Below are positions 16,901 through 53,988 of a DNA stretch of 64,000 bases, piece after piece; within the stretch, counting starts at the first letter, position 1; every line of letters begins with the position of its first letter. The stretch is from a virus. The DNA is taken from positions 50,830 through 114,829 of IMG/VR virus record IMGVR_UViG_3300025276_000024; one strand, written 5' to 3'. The position numbers and the translations under genes were made by a program. The notes under the pieces were generated by a model. That model made no database searches and was not told the DNA's origin. It saw only the letters and a program-made list of their open reading frames with translations.

Positions 16901-19900
16901 ATTTCTGGATCATTGCAAGAATCATTAATAAACATTGCAATGCAGTCTGGTGCAAAGGAAGAAGTTATTAGTTTTGAAAAAGCTGTTTCTTTAGCACAGG
17001 GTGTTTCAATGGCGGGTATAAGAAGTGAGGTAACTAAATCATTAAATGAAAGCTTTAAAGAATTTGATACACTACTACAAGATTTAAAAGTAAAAGATAA
17101 TTTATCTAAACAAGTACTACAAGGTTTAACAATTGGAGAAGGAGTTGCAAGAACTTCTATTGAATTATCTGGATTAAAATTAAATTTAAATACCAACACA
17201 TCTCATAACCTACAACAAATATTTTTTAACAATTGGATAATTTCTAAGTCCATAAATGATTTACTATTGGGAGACCAAGCCGTATCATTAAAAGATATGG
17301 TTGATAGAGTTAAGAGAGCTAAGCTTCAGAATGCTGCATATTACAGTGCTTCTAGTAAAGTTGTAGATCCGTCTAAGGGTATATTTCATGAAAGTACTAA
17401 TTTTGATATGTTTAGTTTTCAAGAACCAAAGGCTAAATCTTCATTAACAAATAATAATATAGATCTAGCTGATGCTCAAGCATACATAACTACTAAAGGA
17501 GTACGTTATGCTACGTTTGCATTTGGAAGATTGAGTCCTGCAATGTCAAACATGTTAGATGATATTGATGTTGGTAATCCTATTGATGCTGATAGAGCAT
17601 ATGGGACAGAAGAAAATACAATTAATTTATCTGAACAACAAGACTTTATAAATTCTAAGAAGTATGTATATATGGATGGTAAGACAGCTATTAAAATGTC
17701 TGTTACTGTCTTAACTAAAGAGTATACATCAAATTATAATGACAATCTTGGTAAGTGGGAAGCAAAACCTAACATGGTTGAGCTACATTATTTACGTGAG
17801 CAAATGGAAGCCAATGAGGAAAAGAATCAAAACTTTGCTATGGCCGCTCCATTATCTGCAATAAAGATGATGAAGCAATCAGTTAATAGACTTAATCCAG
17901 AGTCTGGTAAATTTGATAAGACAAGAGATTTAACATCTATTAATCTAGATACATCTTACCTAGGGCTACAAGTTATTAATCCATCTAACAAGAAGATTGT
18001 AACTGATATGTCACAAATAAAAGAGCTTATTACAAGTGAACAAGATGATAATGTAGAGGTTGAAGGCATGGTAGATGAAAATGGTGAAACAATGAATGTA
18101 GGTGCTCTTAAAGTTGCCTATAACAAAGCAGTATCTGAAAGAGTTACATTAAAATATAAGAACAAAAGAAATTTAATATTCTCATTTGATACAGCACTGG
18201 ATGAATTTGAATTATCTAAAGAAGCTGGAGCTATTACACCAAATCTAGCTGCCTTTTTACTTGAAGCACAAACATCATTACAGGCATCAGGAGTAAGTTC
18301 AAATTTATTAGAGTTCTTTTCTTTAGAAGACGGAGCACAAAAATATAATTTAAATAGTCCGGTGACTGCTAAGAGGTTTGAGTCATTATTTTTAACATAC
18401 TTTAGTAAAGGCACCTTAAGAGAAAAAGTACCTGGAGATGCGTTTGCACTTGTATCATCATTTGGTCACAAAGTTTACAGACGTGTATTTGAAATTAAAG
18501 ATGGTGTACCAATTAGATCTGAAATAGTAAGAGAGAGCTCAATGAAAGGTGTAACACCTGAAGTAAGCATAGATGATTTACTACAAAGTGCTATACCTGC
18601 AGAAGGAGTAATTGTTCTTGATGATCTGCGTACTGGAGTTATGGAATATAAAAATGGTAAACCAACTGGCTTAAGATATAGTGAGGTTATTATGCCTCCT
18701 ATGGACAAAAACATAATGAGCCTTATATATAATAGTGAAAATGCATCTATCCCAGATGCAATATCTAAAATGTTTGGTGTGCGTATTCCAACTCAAGATA
18801 AACATTCAGCTGTAAATATGAAAGTGGTAGACTTTATGCCTGTGTATTATGGTTCTTCAGCTATATTTCCTAAAGAGTTAGTAGAAATATCTGGAGCAGA
18901 TTTTGATATTGATAAAGTGTATGCTCTTATGAAGGAGTATTACTTAGATAGTAATAAAAACTTTGTAGAGTATGGTGCTGGTAATTCATATTTTGAATAT
19001 GTAAAATATATGAATAGGCAAGTTAAGCAAGCTGGTAACCCAATTAGAACTGCCTCTGACTTATATAAAGATGAAGTTCTTTCTATCAGAATAGATAATG
19101 CTTTAACTGATTCTGAAAAAAATAGACTTACTGATGCCAATGGTATAAATAAAATAAGTGAGGAAGCTCTAAGAGCTATGTTAGTATTAGGTCTCCCTGC
19201 TACACAAGCACAGTTTAAAAGCTATGTTGAAAAAAACGGAACACCTAATGAGGCTGTATTAAACAACAGAATTGTAGATCTGAGATATGCATTAGCTGGG
19301 AATAGAGGTATGACTGGTTCTGAATTATCTGTTTTAAATGATGGTCAATTAAAATATGATTTACCTATTGCATATCAATCTGCTGATTTAGCTGTACTAG
19401 AAGATTTATTTAAAAGATTTTCAAGTACTGATTCTGGTATGGAACTATTTCAAAATAGAGTTGACTCATCAGTTGATGTAGATAATCTTACTGGTATGAT
19501 CAAAGCTTTTGAAGCTAATAAAGGTGCAGCAATTGGTGCTATTGTAAAACCAAATTTATATTTAAGTTTGCTTAGAGAGTATAAAATAAAATTAAAATCT
19601 CCTATAAAATTTAATAATAACACCTATGATGGCTTTACTCAAAATGAAATAGATGGGGTTAGAATTCAGGATATTGTTTCTTCTCTAATTACAATGGAAA
19701 CAGATAATGCTAAAGAACGTTTAATATCTAAGTTAGGTTTAAATATACAAGCTGTAGGTATAGCAGGTAATATGTTATCACTTGGAGTTAGTCTAGACAC
19801 AACAATTCTTTTATTGAATTCAGCTGAGGTACGTGATTTATTTGCTCTTGCATTAAATAAAGATGATCAATTTGATCCAAGCTTAAATACATTATTAAAA

Positions 19901-21891: not shown

Positions 21892-24800
21892 ATGGCTACA
21901 TGTTATAATAAAAATGATGCAGGGTATAAAGCATTAAGGACACAATATAATTCAGATGTTGAAACATCTCAGGTCATTAATAACTGGCAGCTTCTTAATG
22001 ACTCTAAAGTTTTTCCTAGTGTTGTTCAAGCACAGACTATGGTTAAGGATCAAAATATTGTTTTTTCTCTGAAACAGAAAAGATTTGGAGAAAGTGTAAT
22101 TGATAACCTGAGAAGAGAGAGAATAGGTAGTAATCTTAACGGGCAATTTTTAATTAATAATTCTAATCCTGCCACACAATCTTATGATGAAGCATTTTTA
22201 CAAAGCAATCTAAAAAGATTTAATAGATATTTAGAAATTAATAATATCCCTGCTGAGTCATTTTCTGTTACAAGAACTCCAAAGAGTTATAAGATAGAAG
22301 CAGTTAATGATCTATTTAGTTCAAGAGATATATTAGAAAAATCTAGATCATGGGATACTAACAGATCTAGAGCAGTTGTAATGCATCTTAAAAGAATGTT
22401 CCCACAAGTAAAGGTAAAGATGTTATCTGTAGGTCAAGCTAAAATAATGTTTGAGTCATTACCAAAGTGGAGAAAAAATAATGTAGGGTTTGATCAAGTG
22501 AATTCTTTTTATATGGATGGCACAGCATATCTAATAAAAGGAAGAGTCACTGATGAAATAGCAATTGAAGAAATACTGCATCCATTTACTGATGCAATAA
22601 AAATGGAAAATGAAGAACTATTTAATAACTTATTAGATGAAGCAGTTAATAATTTTCCAGAGTTAACTCAGCAAATTGAAGCAGCATATAATAATAAAAA
22701 ATTCAGTGATACTGAAAGAGATCTTGAGATTGTAACACAAGCACTAGCAAGACACTTCAAAAAAGAATATGAAACAACACCTACTACAAACTTTTTAGCA
22801 AAAGTTAAAGAGGTTCTAGAGTGGTTTAAAACTGTTATAGAAAATTTAAACAAGTATTTAACTGGTAGACCTCTTCCTGTTTCAGCAATTAAAGCAGGAA
22901 CAAATCTAAGTGATATTGCAAAATTACTTAATACAGAAGGCATACAGTTTAAATTAGAAAAAAGAGTAGATGGTAAAGTTAGATATAGTTTAACTCCAGC
23001 AAAGGAAGCACAAGTAAGACAAGCATTAGCTGTAGCTAATGATGTTCAAAGACCTCTTATACTACAACTATTTAATGTAGCTCAACTAGAGGATGGTACT
23101 TTAGTTGACTCTCTCTCAGTATCAGTAAAGAATGCTGCAGCAGGTGATTCAATAGTTACACTTAATAAAGAAAATCATACATACATAAATTCAAAGGATA
23201 AAAATAAAGTATATACATCTGTAACTACTGCTATTAAAGGAAAGTTATCTCCTGAAAAGCAAGTTGAGCATCAGATCAATCTAGATATTGGTAATGAGGT
23301 AGATACTTTATTAGATGGTGTTATTGCAAATTTATCTTTTGAGGATTCATTAGCAGCTGTTGAAACCAATAATCTATCAAGAGAAGATATGCAGAAGACC
23401 TTTAATACTTTGGGAAGTATTATGGATAGTATAAGAATGAAAGGTGCTATTGTGTTATCTCAAGTTGTTTTATTTGATGAAGCATCTAAAATGGCAGGTA
23501 CTGCTGATATTTTTATCATTGACCAAAATGGTAAGGTAAATATCATGGACCTTAAAACAACTAAGAATGAACTTAGTAAAGAAGTAGCTCTTAATGATGC
23601 TAAAGGAAAACGTACAGTAAATCAATATAAAGGAAGAGAATATAAATTAGATAAAGACAGTAAGTTGTTAGCTCAATACGATAAGGCAGGTAAGTTGATA
23701 AGTGAAGGTGTTAATAAGCCAGGTACTTTAGAAGAACTTAAAGCACTTACAACAGAAACTCAACATAACTTACAGGTAAATCTATACAGAAGAATGGCAG
23801 AAAACATGGGGTATGAAGTATCCTATGATGAGTGGTCTACATCTACTATACATTTTAAAGTTAATATATCAGGTAAAGGTATTGATCAGGTATATGAGGG
23901 AGGTATAGATTTTGATAGATGGGTGCCTCACCCGGTAAGTCAGAACCTACCTTTAGTAGATAAAATAGTACCAGAAGCATTAAACTCATATCAAAAAAGT
24001 AAATTAGACCAACAACAAGAGGGTGCTTATAATAAATTCTGGAATGGTAAAGATCAAACAGAGACTACTAATGATGATGACAGAAGTAAAGCAGAAAATT
24101 ATGATGAGTATAATGCAGCTGCAGGATTACTAAACACTTATCAAAAAGCATTAATTGCTAAGAGAGATATGATTCCTTTACTGAAATCTAATATCTACAT
24201 GCAATCTACTAAAGATAAAGAAATTGATCAGATATCAAAAACTATTGCATATATAAACATTGCAATGGGAGATGGTGTTAAACAACAATCCACTGCATTG
24301 TCAGAGGTATTGCAAGATGCGCTTGAACAGATTAAAGACTTTCAAAATTTTATACAGGATCCTAAAAATATTAACTCACCAGAGTATGTATCATATGTAT
24401 TAAACTTTGATAAGTACATGAAGACTTTTGATGGGTTATATATAGTAAAAAATACTAAAGGATTAAATGCAACCCAACAAAGACTAATTTTATCTCTGCA
24501 AACACAACTAAATAATTTAAGTGGAGCAGGAACAGACACCGGTGGTATAGTTGGAATTGCACTTAAAGATTATGTTAAAGAACAAGTAAGACTTAAATCT
24601 AATAATGATTATGGTGGAGAAGGAAGCTACTTTACTGAAGCTGATTTAAACCTTCTACTGGAGAAAGCACAGGACATTAGTGATACGGAATATCAAACTA
24701 AAGATATGGCCACTTCTCCTGATGTACTTTTAGCAACAATGGATAAAATTAGAAAAGCACAAAATCAAAAGTTGCTTGATAGAATAGCTCAAAGAGAATC

Positions 24801-27738
24801 ATTAATTAGAGCAGCTGGTCAAAAGCTTCTAAAGTTATCTCCAGAAAGCAAACTAGAAGACTTGTATGATTTTATGTTAGAGTTTGATGCTGATGGTGTT
24901 TTCAATGGACAGTATGTAACTAAAATTGGTCAAAGATACTGGGATGAATATAATAAAGTTAGAGATCCTTTATATGACAATGAGGGAACACCTTATCAAT
25001 ATAGACCTATTTATGATACAGAACAAGCACAAAAGACTGAGCAAGGTAGGAAAGATTTAGAATACAATATAGATTTGGCAGGTAAGAAAAGAGCCTTTGG
25101 TGATTTCTTTATGGCAGAAACAAAGAGAGAGGATGGATCATTAGGCAAAGGAGATAAACATGAATACACTCAGGAGTTTAAAGATGCAAGAGATAAGTTT
25201 GAAGTATGGAAGCCAGGATCAGAAAGTAGTTATAGAGGATTTTGGGAAAAGAAAGCAGGTATAAAAGCAGGAGAGTATGCTGCATATCAAGCTAGATATT
25301 ACGAAGGGATACAATATACTAAAGCAGTTAGAGTTGATGGTGTAGCTACTGGAGCAATAATACAAGAACGACAGGGTTTTATGGTTCCTAAAGTTGAATA
25401 CAGAACAGTAAGAGAAATTTCTGGGTCAGGTATAAACTTCCGTAGTGATAAATATGATGCTATATTGTCAGGTAACGATGCTAAATCAGTAGCAGAAAGA
25501 GAGTTCTATAATCTGTATATTGATATGTTTGAGAATGACCTACTGAAAAAGATTCCAATTGGTCAAGCTGCAAATATGTTAGGCAGAGTACCTTTAGTAC
25601 AGAATAAATTATTAGATGAGGTAACTGAAAGGGGGTCCTTCTTTACTAAGGTCTGGGCTAAAACAGTGAGTAGTAAAGCATTTAATATGTTTAAGCAAAC
25701 GTCTACTCAAAAGAATGTTATACTAGATAACAATGGTTATATTATAGACCAGATGCCAGTATATTATACCGGGAGAGCTAAGATAGATAGTGACATGGCT
25801 GACTTAGAAAAAGAGATCAGTGCATTAAATGCTTCTTATAAAATAAACAAAATCACTGCTGATGAATATAAAACTAAAATTGCTGCTTTAAATGGTAAAA
25901 TGACTAGGCTACGAGCTACACCAAGTAGAGGTCAAATAAGTAAGGATATGGCATCAAGTCTTTTGAAGTTTAGTGCAATGGCAGAAAACTATGAGACTAT
26001 GGGTGCAATTGATGATACATTAAAAGCCTTTGTTAAAGTAATAGAAAAAAGAACTTATACTCCGGCTAAAGGAATGAAGCTAAAGTTATCATCTACATCC
26101 AAAGGTGAAACACAAGAAGACATTGGAACTAAAGCAAATACATCTACACAGGAAAAAAATACTGTCAGGAGAGCTAAGAAGTTTATGTCAATGATACACT
26201 ATGATAATGAAATGATAACCAAAGGTGCAGTAGATAAAATTGCAGATGGTCTAATTCAATTGTCTTCTTTATCTTATGTAGCATTTAACCCTTTTGGTAA
26301 CTTTAATAACTACTTGATTGGTAGATTAAACAATAATATTGAAGCAATTGGTGGTAGATTTTATTCTCAAAAAGCATTTAAAAGAGCAACTTGGGAGTTT
26401 AACAAAAGAGCTCTTCCAGGTTTAGTACAAAGAACTGCCCACGGTGGTGCAGAAAGTCTTTTAGATGTAGTTACATTAGGTATTATACCTGGCTTAGATA
26501 AAGCTGATTATAATAAAAAATTACCTAATAGTAAATATGAAGCTTTTGTTGATATGTTTAGAATGATGGACAACATGTCTGATTTACGTGAGCAAAGTAT
26601 TGTAACAGAGGATGGTAAGAGTTGGTTTGATAAAGCTACAGAGTGGGGTTACATCATGCAAGATGCTGCTGAGTACAATTCACAAACTAAGGTAGGTATG
26701 GCTATTCTAATGGATACGTTTGTAAAAAACACAAAGACAGGGGATAAGCTATCAATGTTTGATGCATTTGAATATGATACTGTAACTCATACAAATAAAT
26801 TAAAAGAGGGATATGACGTTGTTATAAAAAGAAATGGACAAGAAGTGCCATATAGTGATGAGTTTAGATATGAAATTAGAAATGAAATTAGAGAAGTAAA
26901 TAAACAAATTCATGGTAACTATGCTAAGGAAGACAGGATGGTATTACAATCTCATACTCTTGGTAATCTAGCTGTTCAGTTTAAGAAATGGTTGGCCCCT
27001 GCTATTAGAGCAAGATATCAAAGAGAATATTTTGATCAGAATCTTGGTTGGATGGAAGGTAGATATAGATCTGCTTTATCATTTATAAACTATGCTAGAA
27101 AGGAAGTTGTACAAGGTAATCTAGACTTTAAAAATATGGGTAAAAAATACTTAGATGCCCAGGTTAATTTTTATAGCAATGATAAATTTGGTGTAGATAG
27201 AGAATATGGTAAGGGAGGAAACATGGATCAAAGAGCAAAAAATAAATTGTTTGGTTTTTATAGATCTATGGGTGACTTAGGTATTATGTTTAGTACATTA
27301 TTTATATCTATGTTATTTGATGATATACTTTCTGGAGATGATGATGATAGTGATACTACTAAACGATTTAAAAACTTAACTAGATATCAAGCAGACAGAG
27401 TTTATAAAGAGCTTGTATTATTTATGCCATCATTTGCAGGGTTTAAACAAGTAGAGCAAATGTTTAACTCTCCAGTTGCTGCTTCACGTTCAGTAAGTGA
27501 ACTGTCTGAGCTTATGGAAATGTTCTTTATAGGAGGGTTTAAATATTCTATGGCAAGAGTAACAGGAAATCTAGAAGGACCTGATGGTTTTTATGGGAAT
27601 TCAAATTATGTATATCAAAGAGGTAATAGAAAGGGAGAGTTAAAGTTATATAAAAACTTTAAAGATGTATTTCCTATTGTTTATTCAATACAGAAGTGGG
27701 ACTCTTATCTTAAGAATAGTGATTTCTATATTAAATAG
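21892..27738 (+). CDS. Giant cargo protein (1948 aa) with degenerate zincin-like and PD-(D/E)xK nuclease domains
   Basis: IEEILHPF (HExxH-like, first His lost) at 22567-22581; GTADIFII...MDLKT...QVNLY nuclease motifs at about 23497-23790; hydrophobic segment near the C-terminus. Confidence 0.7.
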   Translation: MATCYNKNDAGYKALRTQYNSDVETSQVINNWQLLNDSKVFPSVVQAQTMVKDQNIVFSLKQKRFGESVIDNLRRERIGSNLNGQFLINNSNPATQSYDEAFLQSNLKRFNRYLEINNIPAESFSVTRTPKSYKIEAVNDLFSSRDILEKSRSWDTNRSRAVVMHLKRMFPQVKVKMLSVGQAKIMFESLPKWRKNNVGFDQVNSFYMDGTAYLIKGRVTDEIAIEEILHPFTDAIKMENEELFNNLLDEAVNNFPELTQQIEAAYNNKKFSDTERDLEIVTQALARHFKKEYETTPTTNFLAKVKEVLEWFKTVIENLNKYLTGRPLPVSAIKAGTNLSDIAKLLNTEGIQFKLEKRVDGKVRYSLTPAKEAQVRQALAVANDVQRPLILQLFNVAQLEDGTLVDSLSVSVKNAAAGDSIVTLNKENHTYINSKDKNKVYTSVTTAIKGKLSPEKQVEHQINLDIGNEVDTLLDGVIANLSFEDSLAAVETNNLSREDMQKTFNTLGSIMDSIRMKGAIVLSQVVLFDEASKMAGTADIFIIDQNGKVNIMDLKTTKNELSKEVALNDAKGKRTVNQYKGREYKLDKDSKLLAQYDKAGKLISEGVNKPGTLEELKALTTETQHNLQVNLYRRMAENMGYEVSYDEWSTSTIHFKVNISGKGIDQVYEGGIDFDRWVPHPVSQNLPLVDKIVPEALNSYQKSKLDQQQEGAYNKFWNGKDQTETTNDDDRSKAENYDEYNAAAGLLNTYQKALIAKRDMIPLLKSNIYMQSTKDKEIDQISKTIAYINIAMGDGVKQQSTALSEVLQDALEQIKDFQNFIQDPKNINSPEYVSYVLNFDKYMKTFDGLYIVKNTKGLNATQQRLILSLQTQLNNLSGAGTDTGGIVGIALKDYVKEQVRLKSNNDYGGEGSYFTEADLNLLLEKAQDISDTEYQTKDMATSPDVLLATMDKIRKAQNQKLLDRIAQRESLIRAAGQKLLKLSPESKLEDLYDFMLEFDADGVFNGQYVTKIGQRYWDEYNKVRDPLYDNEGTPYQYRPIYDTEQAQKTEQGRKDLEYNIDLAGKKRAFGDFFMAETKREDGSLGKGDKHEYTQEFKDARDKFEVWKPGSESSYRGFWEKKAGIKAGEYAAYQARYYEGIQYTKAVRVDGVATGAIIQERQGFMVPKVEYRTVREISGSGINFRSDKYDAILSGNDAKSVAEREFYNLYIDMFENDLLKKIPIGQAANMLGRVPLVQNKLLDEVTERGSFFTKVWAKTVSSKAFNMFKQTSTQKNVILDNNGYIIDQMPVYYTGRAKIDSDMADLEKEISALNASYKINKITADEYKTKIAALNGKMTRLRATPSRGQISKDMASSLLKFSAMAENYETMGAIDDTLKAFVKVIEKRTYTPAKGMKLKLSSTSKGETQEDIGTKANTSTQEKNTVRRAKKFMSMIHYDNEMITKGAVDKIADGLIQLSSLSYVAFNPFGNFNNYLIGRLNNNIEAIGGRFYSQKAFKRATWEFNKRALPGLVQRTAHGGAESLLDVVTLGIIPGLDKADYNKKLPNSKYEAFVDMFRMMDNMSDLREQSIVTEDGKSWFDKATEWGYIMQDAAEYNSQTKVGMAILMDTFVKNTKTGDKLSMFDAFEYDTVTHTNKLKEGYDVVIKRNGQEVPYSDEFRYEIRNEIREVNKQIHGNYAKEDRMVLQSHTLGNLAVQFKKWLAPAIRARYQREYFDQNLGWMEGRYRSALSFINYARKEVVQGNLDFKNMGKKYLDAQVNFYSNDKFGVDREYGKGGNMDQRAKNKLFGFYRSMGDLGIMFSTLFISMLFDDILSGDDDDSDTTKRFKNLTRYQADRVYKELVLFMPSFAGFKQVEQMFNSPVAASRSVSELSELMEMFFIGGFKYSMARVTGNLEGPDGFYGNSNYVYQRGNRKGELKLYKNFKDVFPIVYSIQKWDSYLKNSDFYIK

Positions 27739-40568: not shown

Positions 40569-44196
<3,628 letters not shown>

Positions 44197-45281: not shown

Positions 45282-46271
45282 CTATAATTTAACCTTTTTC
45301 ACTAGTAATTCATAAGGCAATGAATAGTTTTTCTCTGTATAATGATAATTTGCAGTCTTTAATACACCACCTAAACCTTCCGCCCAGTTAGACATAGATT
45401 CTTGTGAAACATCAAATACATAAACTTGATTATATTTATCAATAACAATAAACTTAAACTCTATAGTATAATCATCTCTATCATCTCCAAGAGAATCATA
45501 TACCATTTTAGAATATATAGCCGCTTGTAACCAATAGTTATAAAAATCAACACTTTCAGCAAATTTATCTACTGTTTTACCTGATGTTTTCAAGTCACAA
45601 ATTGTAACTGTCTTTGTCTCAGTGTCAACTGTATAATAATCAACATAACCATGTAGACCAAAAGCAAATGTATCTAAATCAGATTTAAGATACTGTTCTG
45701 CATATGTAGTTATTGGATCTAAATCAAAGTCAGTTTGCTCATTTTTAAATAGCTTCATGACCTCTTCATTAGATTTAATTACCTCAGCTTTAGCTGTACA
45801 ATCTAATAAAGTATCTTGGTTAATAACATCTATAGAAGTGTTAGATAAAAATTCCCAATAAGGTTCATTATCTAATGTTCTAACTTTAGCTATTCTAGCC
45901 TCATCTGCTTTTAGAGATTGATATAAATTAAACTCTATTAAAGAGTCAAGTATTACTTTGTCATCTACATCAGCAAGCTTTACAGCTTTAGTATGCAATG
46001 ACATGTTTTTTAGTATCTTTCTAACACTATCTGATGGTGCTTTACCGGGTACTACGTTAAACTTATCATTTAAGTTCTCAGGTTCAAACACTAAACAATG
46101 TACAAGTTTACCTTCTACTAAATGTTTATCAGTTCTGATCTCACGATCTTGTAATATATAGTCCTTATAAAATAAGGATGGTGAAAACAATAATTTATTA
46201 AGGGAAGAATAGCTAAATGCAAATTTCTTGTTTGCATAAAACGTTTCTTCCCTTTGGAGATTTCTATTCAT
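45282..46271 (-). CDS. PD-(D/E)xK exonuclease (RecB/Cas4-like)
   Basis: FSYSSLN, GKLVH, HGYVD...ICDLKTS, YWLQAAIY. Confidence 0.85.
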   Translation of the reverse strand: MNRNLQREETFYANKKFAFSYSSLNKLLFSPSLFYKDYILQDREIRTDKHLVEGKLVHCLVFEPENLNDKFNVVPGKAPSDSVRKILKNMSLHTKAVKLADVDDKVILDSLIEFNLYQSLKADEARIAKVRTLDNEPYWEFLSNTSIDVINQDTLLDCTAKAEVIKSNEEVMKLFKNEQTDFDLDPITTYAEQYLKSDLDTFAFGLHGYVDYYTVDTETKTVTICDLKTSGKTVDKFAESVDFYNYWLQAAIYSKMVYDSLGDDRDDYTIEFKFIVIDKYNQVYVFDVSQESMSNWAEGLGGVLKTANYHYTEKNYSLPYELLVKKVKL

Positions 46272-47406
46272 TTACTATCATTTTATTAGTTAGTTCTTCA
46301 TTAATATATAATGAATCTAAGTCTACTTTAAAGACTTGAGCTTCTGGGCCAACTGAACTATTAAGAAATGTTGAATGAAGCTTTTCCCGTGTGGTATCTA
46401 CAGCAAATTTAGTTAATTTTCTATCAGCGGCCAAAAGGTTTAAGTAATTATTAAATGAATAAATGGTCTGACTAGTGTGGTTACCTTCATATTTTCTCAT
46501 TCTTTTTCTAAAAGCTTTTACATTAACTGTATTCCAATTAGTAGTATTTTTCATCCAATCAAAATTCCAATAATATATACCAGAAACTACATCAAAAGAC
46601 TTATCAATATTACAATTAGCTAGCATCTCTAATGCAAGAGATCTATTTTCTATATCACTACTCATAATCATTTTTTCAACTTCAGCTAATTTATCAGATT
46701 CAAGTACAGCAAGATCCTCATCTATTAGATTACATACATTTGTATCAAGTATAAGTGTAGAATTAATATTTGTTAATCTAGCATAATTTGCAAAGTTTTC
46801 AGGTGTTAAAACAAAATCATGGTTTGGTCTGTCACGTAAATTTGTATCTAAATAGTTTTGTATAATATCATGATACTTTTCTACTGCAGCACTAGCATTC
46901 CAATTTTTATTATTCTTGAATAAGACTACTGAGTTTCTATCTGCTTGAGTCATAAAGTCTCTTAGGACAATTAAAGCTGATTCAGATAATAAATCTAAGT
47001 CTTTTAAATGCTTAAATATATTATAGTTCTCTATAAAACTTATTGAAGAATTCCATTCTCTAAGGATAAGCTTATCAAAAAATCTCATAGATACTATATG
47101 TATATCAGCTTTATTAGGATCTCTAATAACTTTACATTTATATTTATCTTTCAGTAAATCTACCTTTTGTCTAGGTAAATCTAATTTTGGATATCTATAT
47201 ACTTTTTTATCTTGAAAGTCTGTTTTATCAGTTAATGTAGGAATACCCAAATGTTTTAAATCATCCGTTGTAACTTCCCAACCATTACCTACAAACAGAT
47301 GCATATTATCACTTAAACTCCAAGTGATTGCATCTCCCATAAGTTGACCATTAGCATCTATATGTTTATCCTCTATGTTAATCTGTATTTGATATTTCTT
47401 TTTCAT
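46264..47406 (-). CDS. MoxR/vWA-associated protein A with BRCT-like segment
   Basis: KVYRYPKLDLPRQKVDLLKDKYKCKVIRDPNKADIHIV; similar to the adjacent 359-aa protein. Confidence 0.55.
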   Translation of the reverse strand: MKKKYQIQINIEDKHIDANGQLMGDAITWSLSDNMHLFVGNGWEVTTDDLKHLGIPTLTDKTDFQDKKVYRYPKLDLPRQKVDLLKDKYKCKVIRDPNKADIHIVSMRFFDKLILREWNSSISFIENYNIFKHLKDLDLLSESALIVLRDFMTQADRNSVVLFKNNKNWNASAAVEKYHDIIQNYLDTNLRDRPNHDFVLTPENFANYARLTNINSTLILDTNVCNLIDEDLAVLESDKLAEVEKMIMSSDIENRSLALEMLANCNIDKSFDVVSGIYYWNFDWMKNTTNWNTVNVKAFRKRMRKYEGNHTSQTIYSFNNYLNLLAADRKLTKFAVDTTREKLHSTFLNSSVGPEAQVFKVDLDSLYINEELTNKMIVNE

Positions 47407-48457
47407 TGGTTTTTTTTAAATATTGTTGATATTCTTTTTTCACAGCTACTTTAAATGTATAAAGATCTCTGTTATGAATGCTTATCTCTCTTCTTACTAT
47501 AGGTTCTAGATATCTGAATGTTGTTTTACACAACTTATCATTTTCTTCTAACCATAATATCATATCCTGTGCACTCTTCCGGTTAAAACTTTCAAAATTA
47601 GAAGCTTCAATCCAGTACTTAAGATCTTTATCTCTAGCATCTGCATAGGTTATACTACTACAATCTTGTGCAAATTGCCACAGTAAATGATAGTTTGTTT
47701 TATAATCTATAGTAGGAACAACTTTAAGAGCTACAGCTGAATCTTCACTATAACGTGAGGAATCCAATTGAACTTTAAGATCTGCTAGCAATTGTTCATC
47801 AAGAACCATTTTGCTAGCTGAACTATGTAACACGGTCTCTGGGTCAACAACACTTAAATCTGTTGTATCTATAAGATGTGCTAAGTTTAGTGCCATACCT
47901 GTGATCATCCATACATCATATACACTGCTTTCTATATCTAAATCATAGTATCTTACTTTATCTGTTAACCTGTTGGTTATTAAAGTTGGGATACCTGAGT
48001 TATAAATTGCCATTTCCATAGGATGAGTAGCTGATTCTCTACCTTCAGTAGTTTCATAATTCCATAACTTTGCCATCATAAGAGTACTAGGTATATTATC
48101 CCCATTACTTATCTTATCATGTGGCGTTATATCATCATGACCTATAACTAAGTCTGCTAATTCAAAATCATTAGTCACAGTTATACTATGCTCTTTAAGA
48201 GCTGCTTTTAACCTATCTTGTGATACACTACACTTAGGTAATATAAAAGCTTTCTTTTTAGTTCTAAAAGTTTGGTCATCTTCTGTAGGGACTGTTAATA
48301 TACTGTGTATTTTTTCATATGTTGTTTGATCTTCAGTGCATAATACTTTAGATACCTCACTTGAACTAGAGATGACACCATTCATGGTATCATTCTCTAA
48401 TCCAAAATGAGCTAAAGCATCAGCATTGTAATCTTGATATACTGATTTGTTTGCCAT
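47378..48457 (-). CDS. MoxR/vWA-associated protein B, paralog of 46264..47406
   Basis: KAFILPKCSVSQDRLKAALKEHSITVTNDFELADLVIG. Confidence 0.55.
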   Translation of the reverse strand: MANKSVYQDYNADALAHFGLENDTMNGVISSSSEVSKVLCTEDQTTYEKIHSILTVPTEDDQTFRTKKKAFILPKCSVSQDRLKAALKEHSITVTNDFELADLVIGHDDITPHDKISNGDNIPSTLMMAKLWNYETTEGRESATHPMEMAIYNSGIPTLITNRLTDKVRYYDLDIESSVYDVWMITGMALNLAHLIDTTDLSVVDPETVLHSSASKMVLDEQLLADLKVQLDSSRYSEDSAVALKVVPTIDYKTNYHLLWQFAQDCSSITYADARDKDLKYWIEASNFESFNRKSAQDMILWLEENDKLCKTTFRYLEPIVRREISIHNRDLYTFKVAVKKEYQQYLKKTNEKEISNTD

Positions 48458-48458
48458 T

Positions 48459-49730
48459 CTATTTCATTGTCATTTTAATGATTTCTGGTATCATCATTAG
48501 TTTATTAAACTTCTTCTTGTTACCATTAAAAATTGTACGTACAACTAAATACTTTAGATCATTAGTAAAATAATCTTCAGTACATAAAGCTTTAAGTCTG
48601 TCAGTAACTTTCTGACCAACTGTATTTTCATGAGAATATACAACAGCATAATTACCCAGTCTAGTTGCTAAAGTTGCTGCAATATCAGCACGGTACGTAT
48701 CATCTTTTCCTATACATCCTCTTAGTTCACCAAGAATGTAAGCCTGGTTATCATGTGTCAACAAATCTTTAGGTGTAACAAGCTTATCTAGCTTATTATT
48801 AATAAAGGTTGTAAACATAGAAGCAAAAGCATCACCAACACTACCTTCTCCAATCATCTGAATCATGCTTAGATTATCTTCAAAAGAATCAAAGCTAGAT
48901 ATAGAGTTAAAGAATGTTGTAATTGATCTTGCATTAGTTTCTTGAGTAACTAGTTCTGGATGAAGCAACAGGAAATTAATACATCTAGTATCTATTCCTG
49001 CACCCTCAGCCCATTGTGCCCATACATTAACATCAAACTTAAGATTAGCAGTTACATATCTAGTCTTCTGTGCACTATCTACACTGTTAACCATATAGTC
49101 ACCATTATCTGGGTTAGCTGTTAAAATTATGTGCCAGTCTTTTGGTAATGACCATGAAATATAAGTTTGTCTATCTATCAATTCCATAACTGCTTGGATA
49201 AATCTTGTATCAGCACGGTTCCAGTCATCTAGTAATAAGATACCACCGGCCTTTGCATCAGCAATCCATTCAGGTGCACAATAAGACATTCTATTTTTAC
49301 CAGTCATCTTAAATCCTTGTTTAAGATATTCTTGCACTGCAAGTTCATCAACCCATTGGCCAACTTTCTTTATGACTGGTTGTCCAATAATTGCTAGACT
49401 ATTACCGGCAGCTCTTTGAGCAGCAGTAACCATAGTTATATCATCAATCTTTTTAGCAGGCATACTTTTTTCTTTATACATCTGGAATTGACGTACAGGG
49501 AAACCTACTAAGTCACCTAGTTCTTCTATCTGTGCTAAATTAAGTTTTACAAACTTTAGTTTATTATCTTGAGCCAGCTCAACTATGGTAGATGTTTTAC
49601 CAATACCTGATTCTCCTACAACTTCTACTGATACAGGGCTTTTCCCCGCTTCTTGTAGAAATCTATTATTTGTGATTATGTGATTTACAAAACCTTTTAA
49701 CTCTGTTACATTTAAATTTACTTGTGCCAT
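48459..49730 (-). CDS. MoxR-like AAA+ ATPase
   Basis: Walker A GESGIGKT, EELGDLVGFP, Walker B ILLLDDWNRA, LTANP, DSAQKTR. Confidence 0.85.
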   Translation of the reverse strand: MAQVNLNVTELKGFVNHIITNNRFLQEAGKSPVSVEVVGESGIGKTSTIVELAQDNKLKFVKLNLAQIEELGDLVGFPVRQFQMYKEKSMPAKKIDDITMVTAAQRAAGNSLAIIGQPVIKKVGQWVDELAVQEYLKQGFKMTGKNRMSYCAPEWIADAKAGGILLLDDWNRADTRFIQAVMELIDRQTYISWSLPKDWHIILTANPDNGDYMVNSVDSAQKTRYVTANLKFDVNVWAQWAEGAGIDTRCINFLLLHPELVTQETNARSITTFFNSISSFDSFEDNLSMIQMIGEGSVGDAFASMFTTFINNKLDKLVTPKDLLTHDNQAYILGELRGCIGKDDTYRADIAATLATRLGNYAVVYSHENTVGQKVTDRLKALCTEDYFTNDLKYLVVRTIFNGNKKKFNKLMMIPEIIKMTMK

Positions 49731-49736
49731 TTTCTA

Positions 49737-50900
49737 TTAATTTAATTTTATTACTTGTCCTGGTAACTCATCATTCATATCAGAAATACTGCTTAAACAC
49801 CATAAGGTATTCTTTGGGCAGTTCTCTGGAGAATATGCTTCACCATCTGTTAAATATACAAGAGCTGTATAAACTCCTTTCTTTTCATTAAAATGATCTA
49901 TTACTGGTTGAAAACTAGTTCCACCACGACCATGTATTTCCCAATCATGTTTTGGATTAAACTCCTTCACACTTTTGAGTTGTGTATCACACTGTGCTAC
50001 TGTAATTTTATGGCCAGTCTTAACCATGTGTGCTAATTCATTAAAGAATTCTTTTAGCTCATCATTATTTACAGATCCACTTGTGTCAACACCAACTAGG
50101 ATATGATTCTTAAATTTAATTTTAAGGCCAGGATTGGCAGCATATCTTTTGTTGTATTTACGTCTCAGCTTTTTAGTATATACTATAGAAGAATTACCAA
50201 CAAATCTTTTTAGGTAACCTTTCCAGTCAAACTTAGCTGGTTCTATATGAGTAAGCCTATGTATAAGCTCTGCTAATTCTCCTGGAATACTTCCTGACTT
50301 CTTAACTGTTTGTTCTGCAGTGTCCTTTAACTGATGCTCAATTTGTTTTTGCATTAGTTTTTTGTCTGCTTCAGGTAACTCATCAAACTCATTCCAAGTA
50401 CTATGACAATGTTGGCTATTACCATCCATAGTGTCCATTAAGCTATCTAATGATGGGCAACTCCCATCTTCTTGTGCTTGTTCCAAAAGTTCATAATACT
50501 TTTTAGTACCTGCTTTGGTAGGAAGATTTAATTCAGGAAAACTACTTAACAACAATCCACCTGTAGGTAGCTTGCTTTCCAGTATGTACTGGTTGATCTC
50601 TAGATCTGCAGCTATATTAAATAACTTATGATCTGCATATAGGTCCCTTAAAATAAGATGTCCAAAAGCTATATGTAATAACTCATGCTTTATTAAGCCA
50701 AATCTATGATCTTCACTTAGATCACTATAGAATTGTGGATTTATAGTTAATTGCATACCAATACCGTGCTTGCTTACACCTGCTGTAGGTATACGCTCAC
50801 TGTATTGTTTATTTATGCCAATTAAAAAGAGCCCGTAAAAGGGCTCTGAAAATATTAAACTTTTGGTTGTTCTTGCAACCTGATCTTGAATGTTTATCAT
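49737..50900 (-). CDS. Metallopeptidase-like + vWA domain protein (DUF2201-type)
   Basis: HELLH zincin and NIAADLEIN; MIDAS DTSGS, GRGGTSF, LTDG. Confidence 0.85.
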   Translation of the reverse strand: MINIQDQVARTTKSLIFSEPFYGLFLIGINKQYSERIPTAGVSKHGIGMQLTINPQFYSDLSEDHRFGLIKHELLHIAFGHLILRDLYADHKLFNIAADLEINQYILESKLPTGGLLLSSFPELNLPTKAGTKKYYELLEQAQEDGSCPSLDSLMDTMDGNSQHCHSTWNEFDELPEADKKLMQKQIEHQLKDTAEQTVKKSGSIPGELAELIHRLTHIEPAKFDWKGYLKRFVGNSSIVYTKKLRRKYNKRYAANPGLKIKFKNHILVGVDTSGSVNNDELKEFFNELAHMVKTGHKITVAQCDTQLKSVKEFNPKHDWEIHGRGGTSFQPVIDHFNEKKGVYTALVYLTDGEAYSPENCPKNTLWCLSSISDMNDELPGQVIKLN

Positions 50901-51199
50901 CTCTTCATAATTTTATCTAGTATTGTTTTGTATATAGAATGCATTGTTTGCTCTTCTATGTATATATATAGTTGTTGTTTTCCAATTAGTGGAATTTCTT
51001 TAAATAATACTGCATCTGCAAACTTTTTTCTATTCTTAAACATTAAAGCTTTATGCATTAACAAATCTGTAGTATCATCTTGATAATTACCTTTATAAAT
51101 TTCCCAAGCTAATTCTTGATCTTCTTTAAGACCTTGAAACATCTCTTTTAATTTAAAAAATTCATCAATAGTAATTACTTTGAGATCAGTTCTATCCAT
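50897..51199 (-). CDS. Small helical protein of the MoxR/vWA module
   Basis: VITIDEFFKLKEMFQGLKEDQELAWEI resembles a segment of the two downstream paralogs. Confidence 0.55.
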   Translation of the reverse strand: MDRTDLKVITIDEFFKLKEMFQGLKEDQELAWEIYKGNYQDDTTDLLMHKALMFKNRKKFADAVLFKEIPLIGKQQLYIYIEEQTMHSIYKTILDKIMKR

Positions 51200-51552
51200 A
51201 CCCCTGGGTTTTCTTTACTATATTTATATTTTTCAAATCCGGGTATAATAAACTCAGCATTATCATCTTCAATCCATCCATATTTAACCATATCATCTTG
51301 TACAGTCTGTGCAGGATTTATGTAGTCAAACTTATGACGGCTGCCTCTAATAAACTCAAACGTTATTTTAACTGGTAACTTATGTTTTTCTAACTCTGTT
51401 TTAAAGTCTTCAGCATAACTAAGATATATATCTTTAGTTGCTTTTCTATAAGTCATCACGGCCTTACTTGCTATAAAGTATTTACCTGTCCAACGTCTAC
51501 CATTCTTACTAGAAGGAACGTTACCTGGTATCCACCATTTTTTATTTTCCAT
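51175..51552 (-). CDS. RusA-like Holliday junction resolvase
   Basis: IPGNVPSSKN...FDYINPAQTVQDDM...IEDDNA. Confidence 0.65.
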   Translation of the reverse strand: MENKKWWIPGNVPSSKNGRRWTGKYFIASKAVMTYRKATKDIYLSYAEDFKTELEKHKLPVKITFEFIRGSRHKFDYINPAQTVQDDMVKYGWIEDDNAEFIIPGFEKYKYSKENPGVWIELISK

Positions 51553-52600: not shown

Positions 52601-53275
52601 CTACAATTCAAAGTCAGATCCTGCTGCAGGAGCTGGCTCAAAATTACTTGCAGGTGTTGATTCCTTTTTAATCATAGGTCTGAAATGATTGGTATCATTT
52701 TTATCAAACTCAGTTAAATTAGAATTCTCTGCATCTAGAGCTTCTAGAGGCACACCCATTCTATTTCTCTTTGGTAAAAATAAGTCATTGTTTACATAAC
52801 CTTCTTTGTTTTCCCATTCACGTGCACCCAAACATGCATTAATGTATCCTGTTTGAGAACAGATTTTTGCAGCCTTTAACATAAAGTCTTCAATTGTTCC
52901 TGCCTCAATAGCATCAAGTTCATCTCTCTTTCCTACAACTTCAGATAAGAAAACCATAGCTTTCAACACTTCTGTGTCTCTGCTGATTTCATTACCATTG
53001 TTTAGTGTAGCATCTTTAAATGGATACGGAGAGAATCTTACTCTGCCTACCTGGCCTTCATAACGTGGCCCATTAGGATTATTTACATCTTTTAGGAAAC
53101 CATTAAATTCACCTTCAACAGGCTCACCTTCAATGTGCAATGTGATGTTGTAAGCATCAGCATCATATGGAGTTTGATCAAATGTAATTGAATTGATCAT
53201 TACTTTTTGATTTCCTGTTCCAATTACTGGTTTTGTTCCACCTGTTCCGGCAGACATGTCTTTAGTACTTAACAT
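52601..53275 (-). CDS. Putative single-stranded DNA-binding protein
   Basis: Lies between the Sak4-like ATPase and the primase; flexible tail ending SDFEL. Confidence 0.5.
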   Translation of the reverse strand: MLSTKDMSAGTGGTKPVIGTGNQKVMINSITFDQTPYDADAYNITLHIEGEPVEGEFNGFLKDVNNPNGPRYEGQVGRVRFSPYPFKDATLNNGNEISRDTEVLKAMVFLSEVVGKRDELDAIEAGTIEDFMLKAAKICSQTGYINACLGAREWENKEGYVNNDLFLPKRNRMGVPLEALDAENSNLTEFDKNDTNHFRPMIKKESTPASNFEPAPAAGSDFEL

Positions 53276-53304: not shown

Positions 53305-53988
53305 TTATTTGTTGTATGCATTGATACAACTGGTTACAAACTGTAGGTCATTGTCAATAAATTTATTTTCAAACATACCCATTGGTGATTTACATGTGTT
53401 CTCACCATTGTTTTGGGTCTCAAAACCATAGACAAGTTCACCATCATCATTTTTATTTACTTTTCCAAATAAAACAATAGAGAATAGGCCTTCTAAAGTT
53501 AAAGTGTTGTCAATCATTTTTCCAACAGTTTTAGCTTTAATCTTTCTATTTCCATTAATATCAGTTGAATCTTCTGAGTGAGTTAAGAAAATGATAGTCA
53601 AGTCTTCTCTTAGATCTTTAGGTAGCTTAGCAACTTGTGCTAAGTTAGCTGCAATCTGAGTAAACTTTTCATAACCTTTTTCATTAGCTCTATCAAAATA
53701 TTCAAAAGAACTCATATATTGCCAATCATCAACTACAATAGTTTTGATATGGCTCATTTTGTCATTTACATGACGCATTGCCTTAATAATACCTGGTGCA
53801 GTTGCAGCAGATGTTAAGTTACCTTTGGGGTTTTCTTTTGTTATCTGAGTATACTTACTCTTCCAACCCTTAAAAGGTAGAGGCTTGTTTGCTATGTTTA
53901 TAATGAAAGTCTCTTTTGGATCTAATGTCCTGATTGAGGTAGACTTTCCTGTACCTGAATCTGCAATTACTAATACGCTGTTTGCCAT
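53305..53988 (-). CDS. AAA_24/Sak4-like ATPase (recombination)
   Basis: ADSGTGKSTS, IVVDDWQY, FLTH, CKSPMGMF. Confidence 0.75.
   Translation of the reverse strand: MANSVLVIADSGTGKSTSIRTLDPKETFIINIANKPLPFKGWKSKYTQITKENPKGNLTSAATAPGIIKAMRHVNDKMSHIKTIVVDDWQYMSSFEYFDRANEKGYEKFTQIAANLAQVAKLPKDLREDLTIIFLTHSEDSTDINGNRKIKAKTVGKMIDNTLTLEGLFSIVLFGKVNKNDDGELVYGFETQNNGENTCKSPMGMFENKFIDNDLQFVTSCINAYNK

Follow-up and report, generated by a model that had tools for sequence, protein, structure and literature searches.

Does the MoxR/vWA machine that is encoded by many phages have protein partners of its own? The question is raised by a stretch of 64,000 nucleotides (the window) that forms the 3' part of the 114.8-kb IMG/VR virus record IMGVR_UViG_3300025276_000024 (positions 50,830 to 114,829). 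In it, a MoxR-type AAA+ ATPase gene and a gene for a zincin metallopeptidase joined to a von Willebrand factor A (vWA) domain lie in a compact block with three further genes, encoding a small helical protein and two larger proteins designated A and B. A first-pass annotation had described five overlapping or abutting genes in the order small protein, peptidase, ATPase, B and A, and the open reading frames (ORFs) bore out both order and coordinates (Table 1). All five are on the minus strand, with overlaps of 4, 29 and 8 nt and gaps of 6 and 1 nt at the junctions of the block, the 6-nt gap separating the zincin-vWA and ATPase genes. Their position between a RusA-like resolvase and a PD-(D/E)XK exonuclease, also noted earlier, was substantiated by matches of the two flanking proteins to phrog_1682 and phrog_412. 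The pair itself has already been described in phages and is not new; at issue are its neighbours. Comparison of related loci showed that the zincin-vWA protein, the ATPase and B constitute an invariant core, and that A and the small protein are accessory.

Approximately 240 loci were collected, all from one marine viral clade, and removal of duplicates left about 140 non-redundant ones. B directly followed the MoxR ATPase gene in 140 of 141 non-redundant loci, in most of them with a gap of 0-3 nt; in the sole exception B was split into three ORFs on two contigs (L063:7277-8221 and L135:7060-8004), which represents either a pseudogene or sequencing errors. Wherever a non-redundant locus extended far enough upstream, the zincin-vWA gene preceded the ATPase gene, adjacent to it or within ~450 nt; a spacer of ~400 nt lay between the two genes in 18 loci (e.g. 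L007:5571-6001). A followed B in 104 of 122 non-redundant loci, and a gene of the small-protein family preceded that of the vWA-peptidase in 103 of 142. Most loci share the full module order of the window, which is weak evidence alone.

A second lineage, in which MoxR is 68% identical to the ATPase of the window, kept the block of vWA-peptidase, MoxR and B in other surroundings. Its gene order is primase, Mre11-like phosphoesterase, DUF1064/endonuclease I-like resolvase, a Cys-rich protein of 86 aa, zincin-vWA, ATPase, B and a FEN-type 5'-3' exonuclease, usually with no A gene between the last two; the DUF1064/endonuclease I-like resolvase thus takes the place of RusA and the FEN-type enzyme that of the PD-(D/E)XK exonuclease. 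It is because the core was kept in this lineage with swapped flanks, while A was usually missing there and the small protein was replaced, that we define the core as zincin-vWA, ATPase and B. In both lineages the block is flanked by a junction resolvase and an exonuclease, despite the replacement of each by a non-homologous family. Conserved linkage to the MoxR/vWA pair was seen in every relative found, the 68%-identity lineage included, but only B proved to be invariant.

The Cys-rich protein encoded before the zincin-vWA gene in the second lineage (L168:3698-3958; homologs in L174-L212) is acidic and zinc-ribbon-like, with five or six conserved Cys pairs. It was considered as a homolog of the small protein and rejected, the two being unrelated.

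The kinship of A, B and the small protein, for which a shared helical motif had been claimed, became apparent only in profile comparisons. Pairwise BLAST was near noise, with A and B matching at E 0.019 over the BRCT-like stretch only and the small protein having no match to A or B. Profiles of close relatives (families from 80 close loci) gave E values of 0.002-0.03 and placed the matches in exactly the register of the first-pass annotation. With a deep A profile (133 full-length representatives, 134 sequences, effective sequence number [Neff] 6.3), hhalign aligned A 64-379 with B 65-350, nearly end to end (84% probability, E 7e-6), and residues 6-49 of the small protein with A 232-279 (84% probability, E 8e-6); controls consisting of reversed alignments and of the unrelated ATPase and peptidase families gave E 0.07-0.9. 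The hidden Markov model (HMM) of B matched divergent A members at 1e-8 to 1e-6 (134 sequences searched), and the deep A HMM matched B members at 3e-7 (30 sequences searched). Between the small protein and B, profile comparison reached E 0.0014 at best. Given such matches with clean controls, the similarity among the three partners is beyond chance. Profile comparison thus identifies A and B as true paralogs, and in the small protein the first ARM/HEAT-like helical unit of both most likely exists as a separate copy. The shared motif is a mark of common descent and not free-standing, and it corresponds to the first ARM/HEAT-like repeat of a larger helical domain.

The family formed by these proteins is large and nameless. 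A HMMER search with the A profile yielded 689 clusters at 50% identity; B has 650 clusters in the protein database, and among the 120 listed none was named beyond 'hypothetical protein'. A, B and the small protein had no match in Pfam (E <= 0.1), PHROGs, NCBIfam or PADLOC. Among 50,697 phage records, from which near-identical ones may be missing, no match was found by blastn with the region or by tblastn with A, with B or with two divergent relatives of A, and searches for related loci with single divergent proteins found none. The cultured crAss-like phage Cellulophaga phi14:2 had no match to the peptidase or to the A family, which is a single weak data point, an empty result of that search being no evidence of absence.

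Structure prediction offered a view of what the two paralogs may look like. AlphaFold2 models of A and B were obtained with predicted local distance difference test (pLDDT) scores of 88.6 and 80.9, respectively. When the A model was compared with 48,161 PDB representatives using VIA, the top matches were BRCT domains: 7scy_K of PARP1 (Z 6.5, root-mean-square deviation 2.6, 77 residues aligned), 9dev_A of PARP4 (Z 6.4) and 3qvg_B of XRCC1 (Z 6.3), followed by Sir4, REV1, MCPH1, TopBP1, BRCA1 and RFC1. Most of the 29 matches at Z >= 5 were BRCT, the top BRCT matches ranging over 5.8-6.5, all below 8 and all obtained with a predicted model. Local Foldseek matches of the predicted models pointed the same way (A to the PARP BRCT domain 2le0 at probability 0.98, B to the PARP1 BRCT domain 2cok at 0.87), and so the BRCT-like segment that had been proposed as common to A and B was recovered in both. 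No global Foldseek match to the PDB was found for either protein, and neither matched a Pfam BRCT sequence family at E <= 0.1. After beta1 no S/T-G was seen (A reads YRYPKLDLPR and B FILPKCSVSQ), and A carries the conserved basic residues R71, R79, K81, K86 and R95. The BRCT matches of A span residues 63-231 with only about 70-77 residues aligned, which we read as a BRCT-like fold that is split in A by an insertion of ~100 residues. B is acidic (net -18), with a neutral BRCT region.

Beyond this region, A 234-308 and B 217-294 matched ARM/HEAT proteins (STAG1, beta-catenin, AP-4 and designed armadillo proteins) at Z 4-5.5 over ~65-78 residues, and several chains were matched by both proteins at corresponding stretches (9u9r_B, 9i8o_A, 8rbx_g and 7wns_A). 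Taken alone, such Z scores lie within the noise of the tool for helical folds; the weight of the ARM/HEAT-like reading comes from the agreement of A and B with each other and with the sequence alignment. Both proteins are accordingly modelled as a predicted BRCT-like fold followed by ARM/HEAT-like helices. Among predicted viral structures (BFVD), A had four significant relatives (A0A8S5QMV2, A0A8S5TL70, A0A8S5TKB2 and A0A6J5LXR8), two of them from one phage and one labelled 'CrAss-like virus'; their sources include crAss-like virus ctYsL76 and Podoviridae sp. ctz6O13. The ESM Atlas's own model of A was poor (pLDDT 0.33) and gave no usable match. A kinship of A with clamp-loader subunits was also considered and rejected, the whole-chain Foldseek probability being at most 0.12 and the template-modelling score about 0.12, i.e. 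noise.

The five proteins diverge at very different rates. At 92-95% ATPase identity, the peptidase had a median identity of 88% and B one of 83%, against 52% in A and 51% in the small protein. Compared with MoxR, the last two diverge 5-8 times faster. A is a duplicate of B with a much higher rate of divergence. The ratio of nonsynonymous to synonymous substitution rates (dN/dS) in close pairs was 0.27 for A, 0.23 for B, 0.20 for the small protein, 0.10 for the peptidase and 0.05 for the ATPase. Values of 0.20-0.27 indicate that A, B and the small protein are real, constrained genes on which purifying selection acts less strongly. A partial Mantel test with MoxR as the control found all gene pairs to correlate (r 0.17-0.62) and does not discriminate among them. 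Conservation of A, measured as entropy, is mosaic, with residues 61-100 and 221-300 conserved and residues 1-60 and 101-220 hypervariable.

The C-terminal tips of A vary as well. A (D/E)(D)LPF-COOH tip after a short acidic linker ends 55 of 150 A-family cluster representatives, and the tip is found on 12 of the 79 A copies in one locus set. Among 2,474 other distinct ORFs of the loci it occurred in one other family only, a protein of ~260 aa encoded upstream of the primase of the second lineage. This peptide is identical to the tip of the bacterial protein SSB, a binder of single-stranded DNA (tip DDDIPF / DDLPF), although here it sits on a BRCT/ARM protein and not on an OB-fold SSB. The C-terminal hexapeptide of SSB is a known protein-docking hub for many genome-maintenance proteins (PMC5872125). 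The A and B proteins of the window lack the tip, ending in ...KMIVNE and ...EISNTD, respectively.

The zincin-vWA protein passed the Pfam cut-offs of both DUF2201_N (63.2 bits against 23.2) and DUF2201 (58.9 against 26.4), matched phrog_1314 (E 2e-63), is of the COG3864 type and is called 'gp25-like' in the annotation of a relative; the label of phrog_1314 in PHROGs, 'HNH endonuclease', is hard to square with its Pfam domains. Its earlier description as a HELLH peptidase with a vWA domain is supported by the conservation of HExxH and DxSxS in the 67 orthologs aligned. H72, E73, H76 and a downstream E101 are invariant across 33 orthologs, and the residues of the metal ion-dependent adhesion site (MIDAS) of the vWA domain, D272, S274, S276, T328 and D352, are invariant in orthologs. 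A match to the SprT family around HExxH was weak (E 0.012, far under the cut-off).

The ATPase fell below the Pfam cut-offs (AAA_5, 18.3 bits against 22; AAA_3, 15.6 against 27). A PDB search with a small profile that included distant phage homologs retrieved the AAA domains of midasin at 4e-30, MoxR 2r44 at 6e-4, NorQ at 6e-4 and CbbQ at 2e-3, with McrB weaker and ClpA/B at only about 1e-8. The matches to midasin, MoxR, NorQ and CbbQ place the ATPase in the AAA_5/MoxR-midasin clade, in agreement with its first assignment as a MoxR ATPase. In Walker B, Asp stands for the catalytic Glu (DD) throughout the clade; DE is found in S-TIM5, AD45-P2 and MinM2, and the Moorella phage has EE. Three further residues, A173, N206 and R224, do not vary, and a long, lineage-variable insertion lies between Walker A and Walker B (~49370-49490), ~30 residues shorter in the second lineage. 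PADLOC defence models matched none of A, B, the small protein and the peptidase; the ATPase gave a weak, sub-threshold DolB match on the P-loop (E 9e-4).

Relatives of the zincin-vWA protein occur in 440 phage records, and in four inspected phage neighbourhoods with an annotated ATPase, the latter adjoins the zincin-vWA gene or is a few genes off. The phage pair (PHROG 1297 and 1314, or COG0714 and COG3864) occurs in N4-like Schitoviridae, in Rak2-like and other jumbo phages and in cyanophage S-TIM5. The window has the same two adjacent proteins with the same domains and with HExxH and MIDAS intact. It differs in the fixed third gene B with its paralog and mini-paralog, which none of the other phages examined has, and in the long insertion and DD Walker B of the ATPase. 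In AD45-P2, Moorella MTATph1, MinM2 and S-TIM5, the neighbours of the pair showed no similarity to A, B or the small protein. In the literature consulted, no function of the MoxR plus metallopeptidase-vWA pair had been established by experiment, no zincin-vWA protein of this type appeared to have been assayed for proteolysis, and no paper dealt with BRCT-type or other third partners of the pair in crAss-like phages. The family of BRCT-ARM partners seems to be new; neither it nor its fixed coupling to the pair was found in the databases and literature searched.

Three known systems invite comparison. The general logic of MoxR-vWA pairs has been described for ternary conflict systems, vWA-MoxR-VMAP, that multicellular bacteria possess (Kaur, Burroughs, Iyer, Aravind 2020, PMC7159879). 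These resemble the block in having three components, namely vWA, MoxR and a family-specific third protein, with a diversifying part. They are unlike it in that no VMAP domain was detected in A, B or the small protein (no Pfam family at E <= 0.1), and in that the peptidase here is fused to vWA, a phage encodes the system and its third component combines BRCT-like and ARM-like parts. Midasin (Rea1), which uses an AAA_5 ring together with a MIDAS domain to pull assembly factors with ubiquitin-like domains off pre-60S particles, is the closest solved relative of the ATPase by profile and shares the principle of an AAA ring with a MIDAS grip on the client; it is a single giant eukaryotic polypeptide without protease, whereas the phage block encodes separate small proteins and a zincin. 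SprT/Spartan/Wss1 zincins work with p97/Cdc48 on DNA-protein crosslinks. By analogy, the phage block, too, would combine a zincin with an AAA+ unfoldase and with modules that target DNA or the replisome, in the setting of replication, although membership of the SprT family is not supported by sequence.

We tentatively favour, at somewhat less than an even chance, a reading in which B is a dedicated third subunit of the MoxR/zincin-vWA machine, conserved BRCT/ARM surfaces dock on that machinery, variable parts of A select partners and the whole acts on replication/recombination complexes. The block would then be a three-part MoxR system inside a phage replication/recombination gene block. In such a machine the ATPase ring would work on the vWA protein, whose MIDAS site would grip an acidic residue of the client, and ATP-driven pulling would remodel the client and might feed it to the zincin site. 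B would be the fixed scaffold or adaptor tying the machine to its client or place of action. In A and B, the surfaces that dock on the conserved machinery could be the conserved BRCT core and the first ARM repeats, joined by the repeat copy in the small protein, and the choice of variable partners could fall to the hypervariable N-terminal beta domain of A, its insertion and its C-terminal tip, which is the SSB tip DDLPF in a third of subfamilies. It is the constant resolvase-exonuclease position, maintained despite replacement of both enzymes by unrelated families, that points to replication/recombination complexes as the site of action.

A bolder version, which we regard as distinctly unlikely, would make the BRCT-ARM proteins interchangeable targeting subunits of a phage ATP-driven, DNA-localised protease analogous to Spartan/Wss1-p97. 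B would anchor the machine at recombination or replication intermediates, and the diverse A proteins would capture host genome-maintenance or defence proteins for removal or cleavage, in part through mimicry of the host SSB tail. If true, it would give the first functional handle on the pair carried by the 440 phage records. A clade with a fixed, structurally interpretable third subunit would allow testable guesses on the site of the machine and its choice of clients, and the BRCT-ARM family, though without a named relative in the databases searched, is ecologically widespread, the clade being abundant in marine metagenomes (>460 viral contigs, and many Tara and JGI samples).

Several observations weigh against B as a dedicated subunit. 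The link of B, A and the small protein to the pair is one of gene position, and all ~240 loci come from one viral clade with a syntenic replication module, so that adjacency may reflect module order and not function. One lineage can dispense with A and the small protein, and the pair clearly works without A, B or the small protein in the four phages where none of them lies beside it. The Glu of Walker B is replaced by Asp in the ATPases of this clade. No gene-wide positive selection was found, dN/dS remaining below 1. The ARM-like Z scores (about 5) are below the noise mark of the tool for helical folds, and structural relatives of A occur in other phages, one of them named crAss-like. A complex prediction with A, the small protein and the vWA-peptidase scored 0.00, which weighs neither way on binding.

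The main rival, possible if on the unlikely side, is that A, B and the small protein are replication/recombination accessory proteins in their own right and merely lie beside the pair. A BRCT scaffold would sit at DNA ends or nicks and an SSB-like tip would recruit host or phage enzymes, with the neighbouring resolvase, exonuclease, Sak4-like annealase and polymerase as partners. The BRCT-like fold of A with its basic core, the SSB tip in a third of A subfamilies and the constant resolvase/exonuclease flanks, with a Sak4-like annealase, a primase and a DnaB-like helicase near by, are all in keeping with such proteins, and the synteny of the whole module makes adjacency to the pair weak evidence. 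However, B keeps its place directly next to MoxR in both lineages (0-3 nt apart in most loci), while other genes around it are exchanged. In addition, its net charge of -18 and neutral BRCT region are unlike those of a DNA binder, and the canonical phosphate-pocket motif of BRCT domains is not evident in the sequence.

The rapid divergence of A and the small protein and the variability of the C-terminal tips, DDLPF among them, would also suit a host-takeover or counter-defence device, in which the two fast-evolving proteins serve as decoys or baits, with or without delivery to the protease; an SSB-tip mimic could, for example, titrate host SSB-binding repair or defence proteins. We consider this improbable, given that gene-wide dN/dS of 0.2-0.27 denotes purifying selection, that the partners match no PADLOC or anti-defence family, and that the A protein of the window has no SSB tip.

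For group 2.2 jumbo phages that carry the MoxR plus metallopeptidase-vWA pair, a role in virion assembly was guessed (Iyer et al. 2021, PMC7824862), the analogy being a MoxR-vWA pair that Acidianus two-tailed virus uses in tail development. Transferred to the window, the pair would be a virion-assembly chaperone/protease, and the part of A, B and the small protein in particle maturation would be that of its clients or of co-chaperones; the phage also has a GroEL gene close by. In contrast to what the published proposal would suggest, the block has recombination genes around it and shares both strand and cluster with the replication genes, away from the structural genes, and DNA enzymes flank it in both lineages. 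Virion clients are not suggested by BRCT folds or SSB tips either, and this explanation is quite doubtful. Lastly, that the shared motif is a generic ARM/HEAT helical-repeat signature only and the small protein unrelated to A and B is very improbable, for although the repeat pattern carries little information, profiles of close families gave the small protein a probability of only 6-14% and its comparison with B was no better than E 0.0014, the deep A profile matched it at E 8e-6 in the previously noted register, with reversed controls at 0.2-0.6, and its own HMM picked up one A ortholog family at 4e-4.

On the minus strand, the genes in and around the block run, in the order of transcription, DnaB-like helicase, Sak4-like annealase, a 224-aa protein, primase and RusA-like resolvase, followed by the small protein, zincin-vWA, ATPase, B and A, and then by the PD-(D/E)XK exonuclease, two small genes, DNA polymerase and GroEL. 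The Sak4-like annealase, RusA-like resolvase and exonuclease together indicate a recombination-dependent replication module. One of many matches of the DNA polymerase was to its counterpart in the Crassvirales phage Cellulophaga phi14:2, at 31% identity.

Table 1. Coordinates in the window of the module genes, their domains and motifs and the two flanking genes
Feature	Position	Strand	Basis or remark
PD-(D/E)XK exonuclease	45282..46271	-	Pfam PDDEXK_1 and DUF3799; phrog_412, E 3e-18; directly downstream of module
A, 380 aa	46264..47406	-	Paralog of B by profile comparison
A, ARM/HEAT-like repeats, residues 232-308	46483..46713	-	Contain the motif of the first-pass annotation
A, hypervariable putative insertion, residues 118-216	46759..47055	-	Entropy 2.2-2.9 bits
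A, BRCT-like core, residues 63-117	47056..47220	-	VIA, Foldseek; basic, net +7
B, 359 aa	47378..48457	-	BRCT-like and ARM/HEAT-like
B, ARM/HEAT-like repeats, residues 217-294	47576..47809	-	Contain the motif of the first-pass annotation
B, BRCT-like core, ~residues 65-117	48107..48265	-	Foldseek 2cok, 0.87; aligned to A core by hhalign
AAA+ ATPase, 423 aa	48459..49730	-	phrog_1297, E 1e-34
ATPase, Walker B ILLLDD, residues 164-169, then WNRA	49224..49241	-	Alignments
ATPase, Walker A GESGIGKT, residues 39-46	49593..49616	-	G39, G42, G44 and K45 invariant across distant phage homologs
Zincin metallopeptidase and vWA protein, 387 aa	49737..50900	-	DUF2201_N and DUF2201; phrog_1314
Zincin-vWA, MIDAS motif DTSGS, residues 272-276	50073..50087	-	DxSxS in 67/67 orthologs
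Zincin-vWA, HELLH zinc-binding/catalytic motif, residues 72-76	50673..50687	-	HExxH in 67/67 orthologs
Small protein, 100 aa	50897..51199	-	ORF; helical
Small protein, residues 6-49, putative homolog of A 232-279 and B 217-262	51053..51184	-	Profile alignments
RusA-like Holliday-junction resolvase	51175..51552	-	phrog_1682, E 1e-17; directly upstream of module

Some neighbouring genes are worth recording in their own right. The Sak4-like single-stranded DNA annealing protein is encoded at 53305-53988 (-) and matches phrog_2872 (E 4e-63). Between it and the primase, the 224-aa protein (52601-53275, -) has no family match, and its 186 homologs share an acidic-aromatic tail, G(D/S)DF(D/E)L. Its counterpart at the same position in the second lineage (~260 aa; 263 aa in L168:283-1074) ends in the classical SSB tip (E/D)DLPF. 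No pairwise similarity was found between the 224-aa and 263-aa proteins, and no PDB match. The two may be candidate phage single-strand-binding proteins with differing partner-docking tips; we do not call them SSBs.

The polymerase gene (42205-44196, -) encodes a C-terminus that reads QLKLF in the window and ...QLSLF in relatives (L171:13235-15145), indicating that a clamp-binding-like end is conserved in at least one sublineage. Directly downstream of it lies the GroEL-type chaperonin gene (40569-42203, -; phrog_5725, E 7e-175). Two giant ORFs are found on the plus strand, at 7958-21877 (4,639 aa) and 21892-27738 (1,948 aa).

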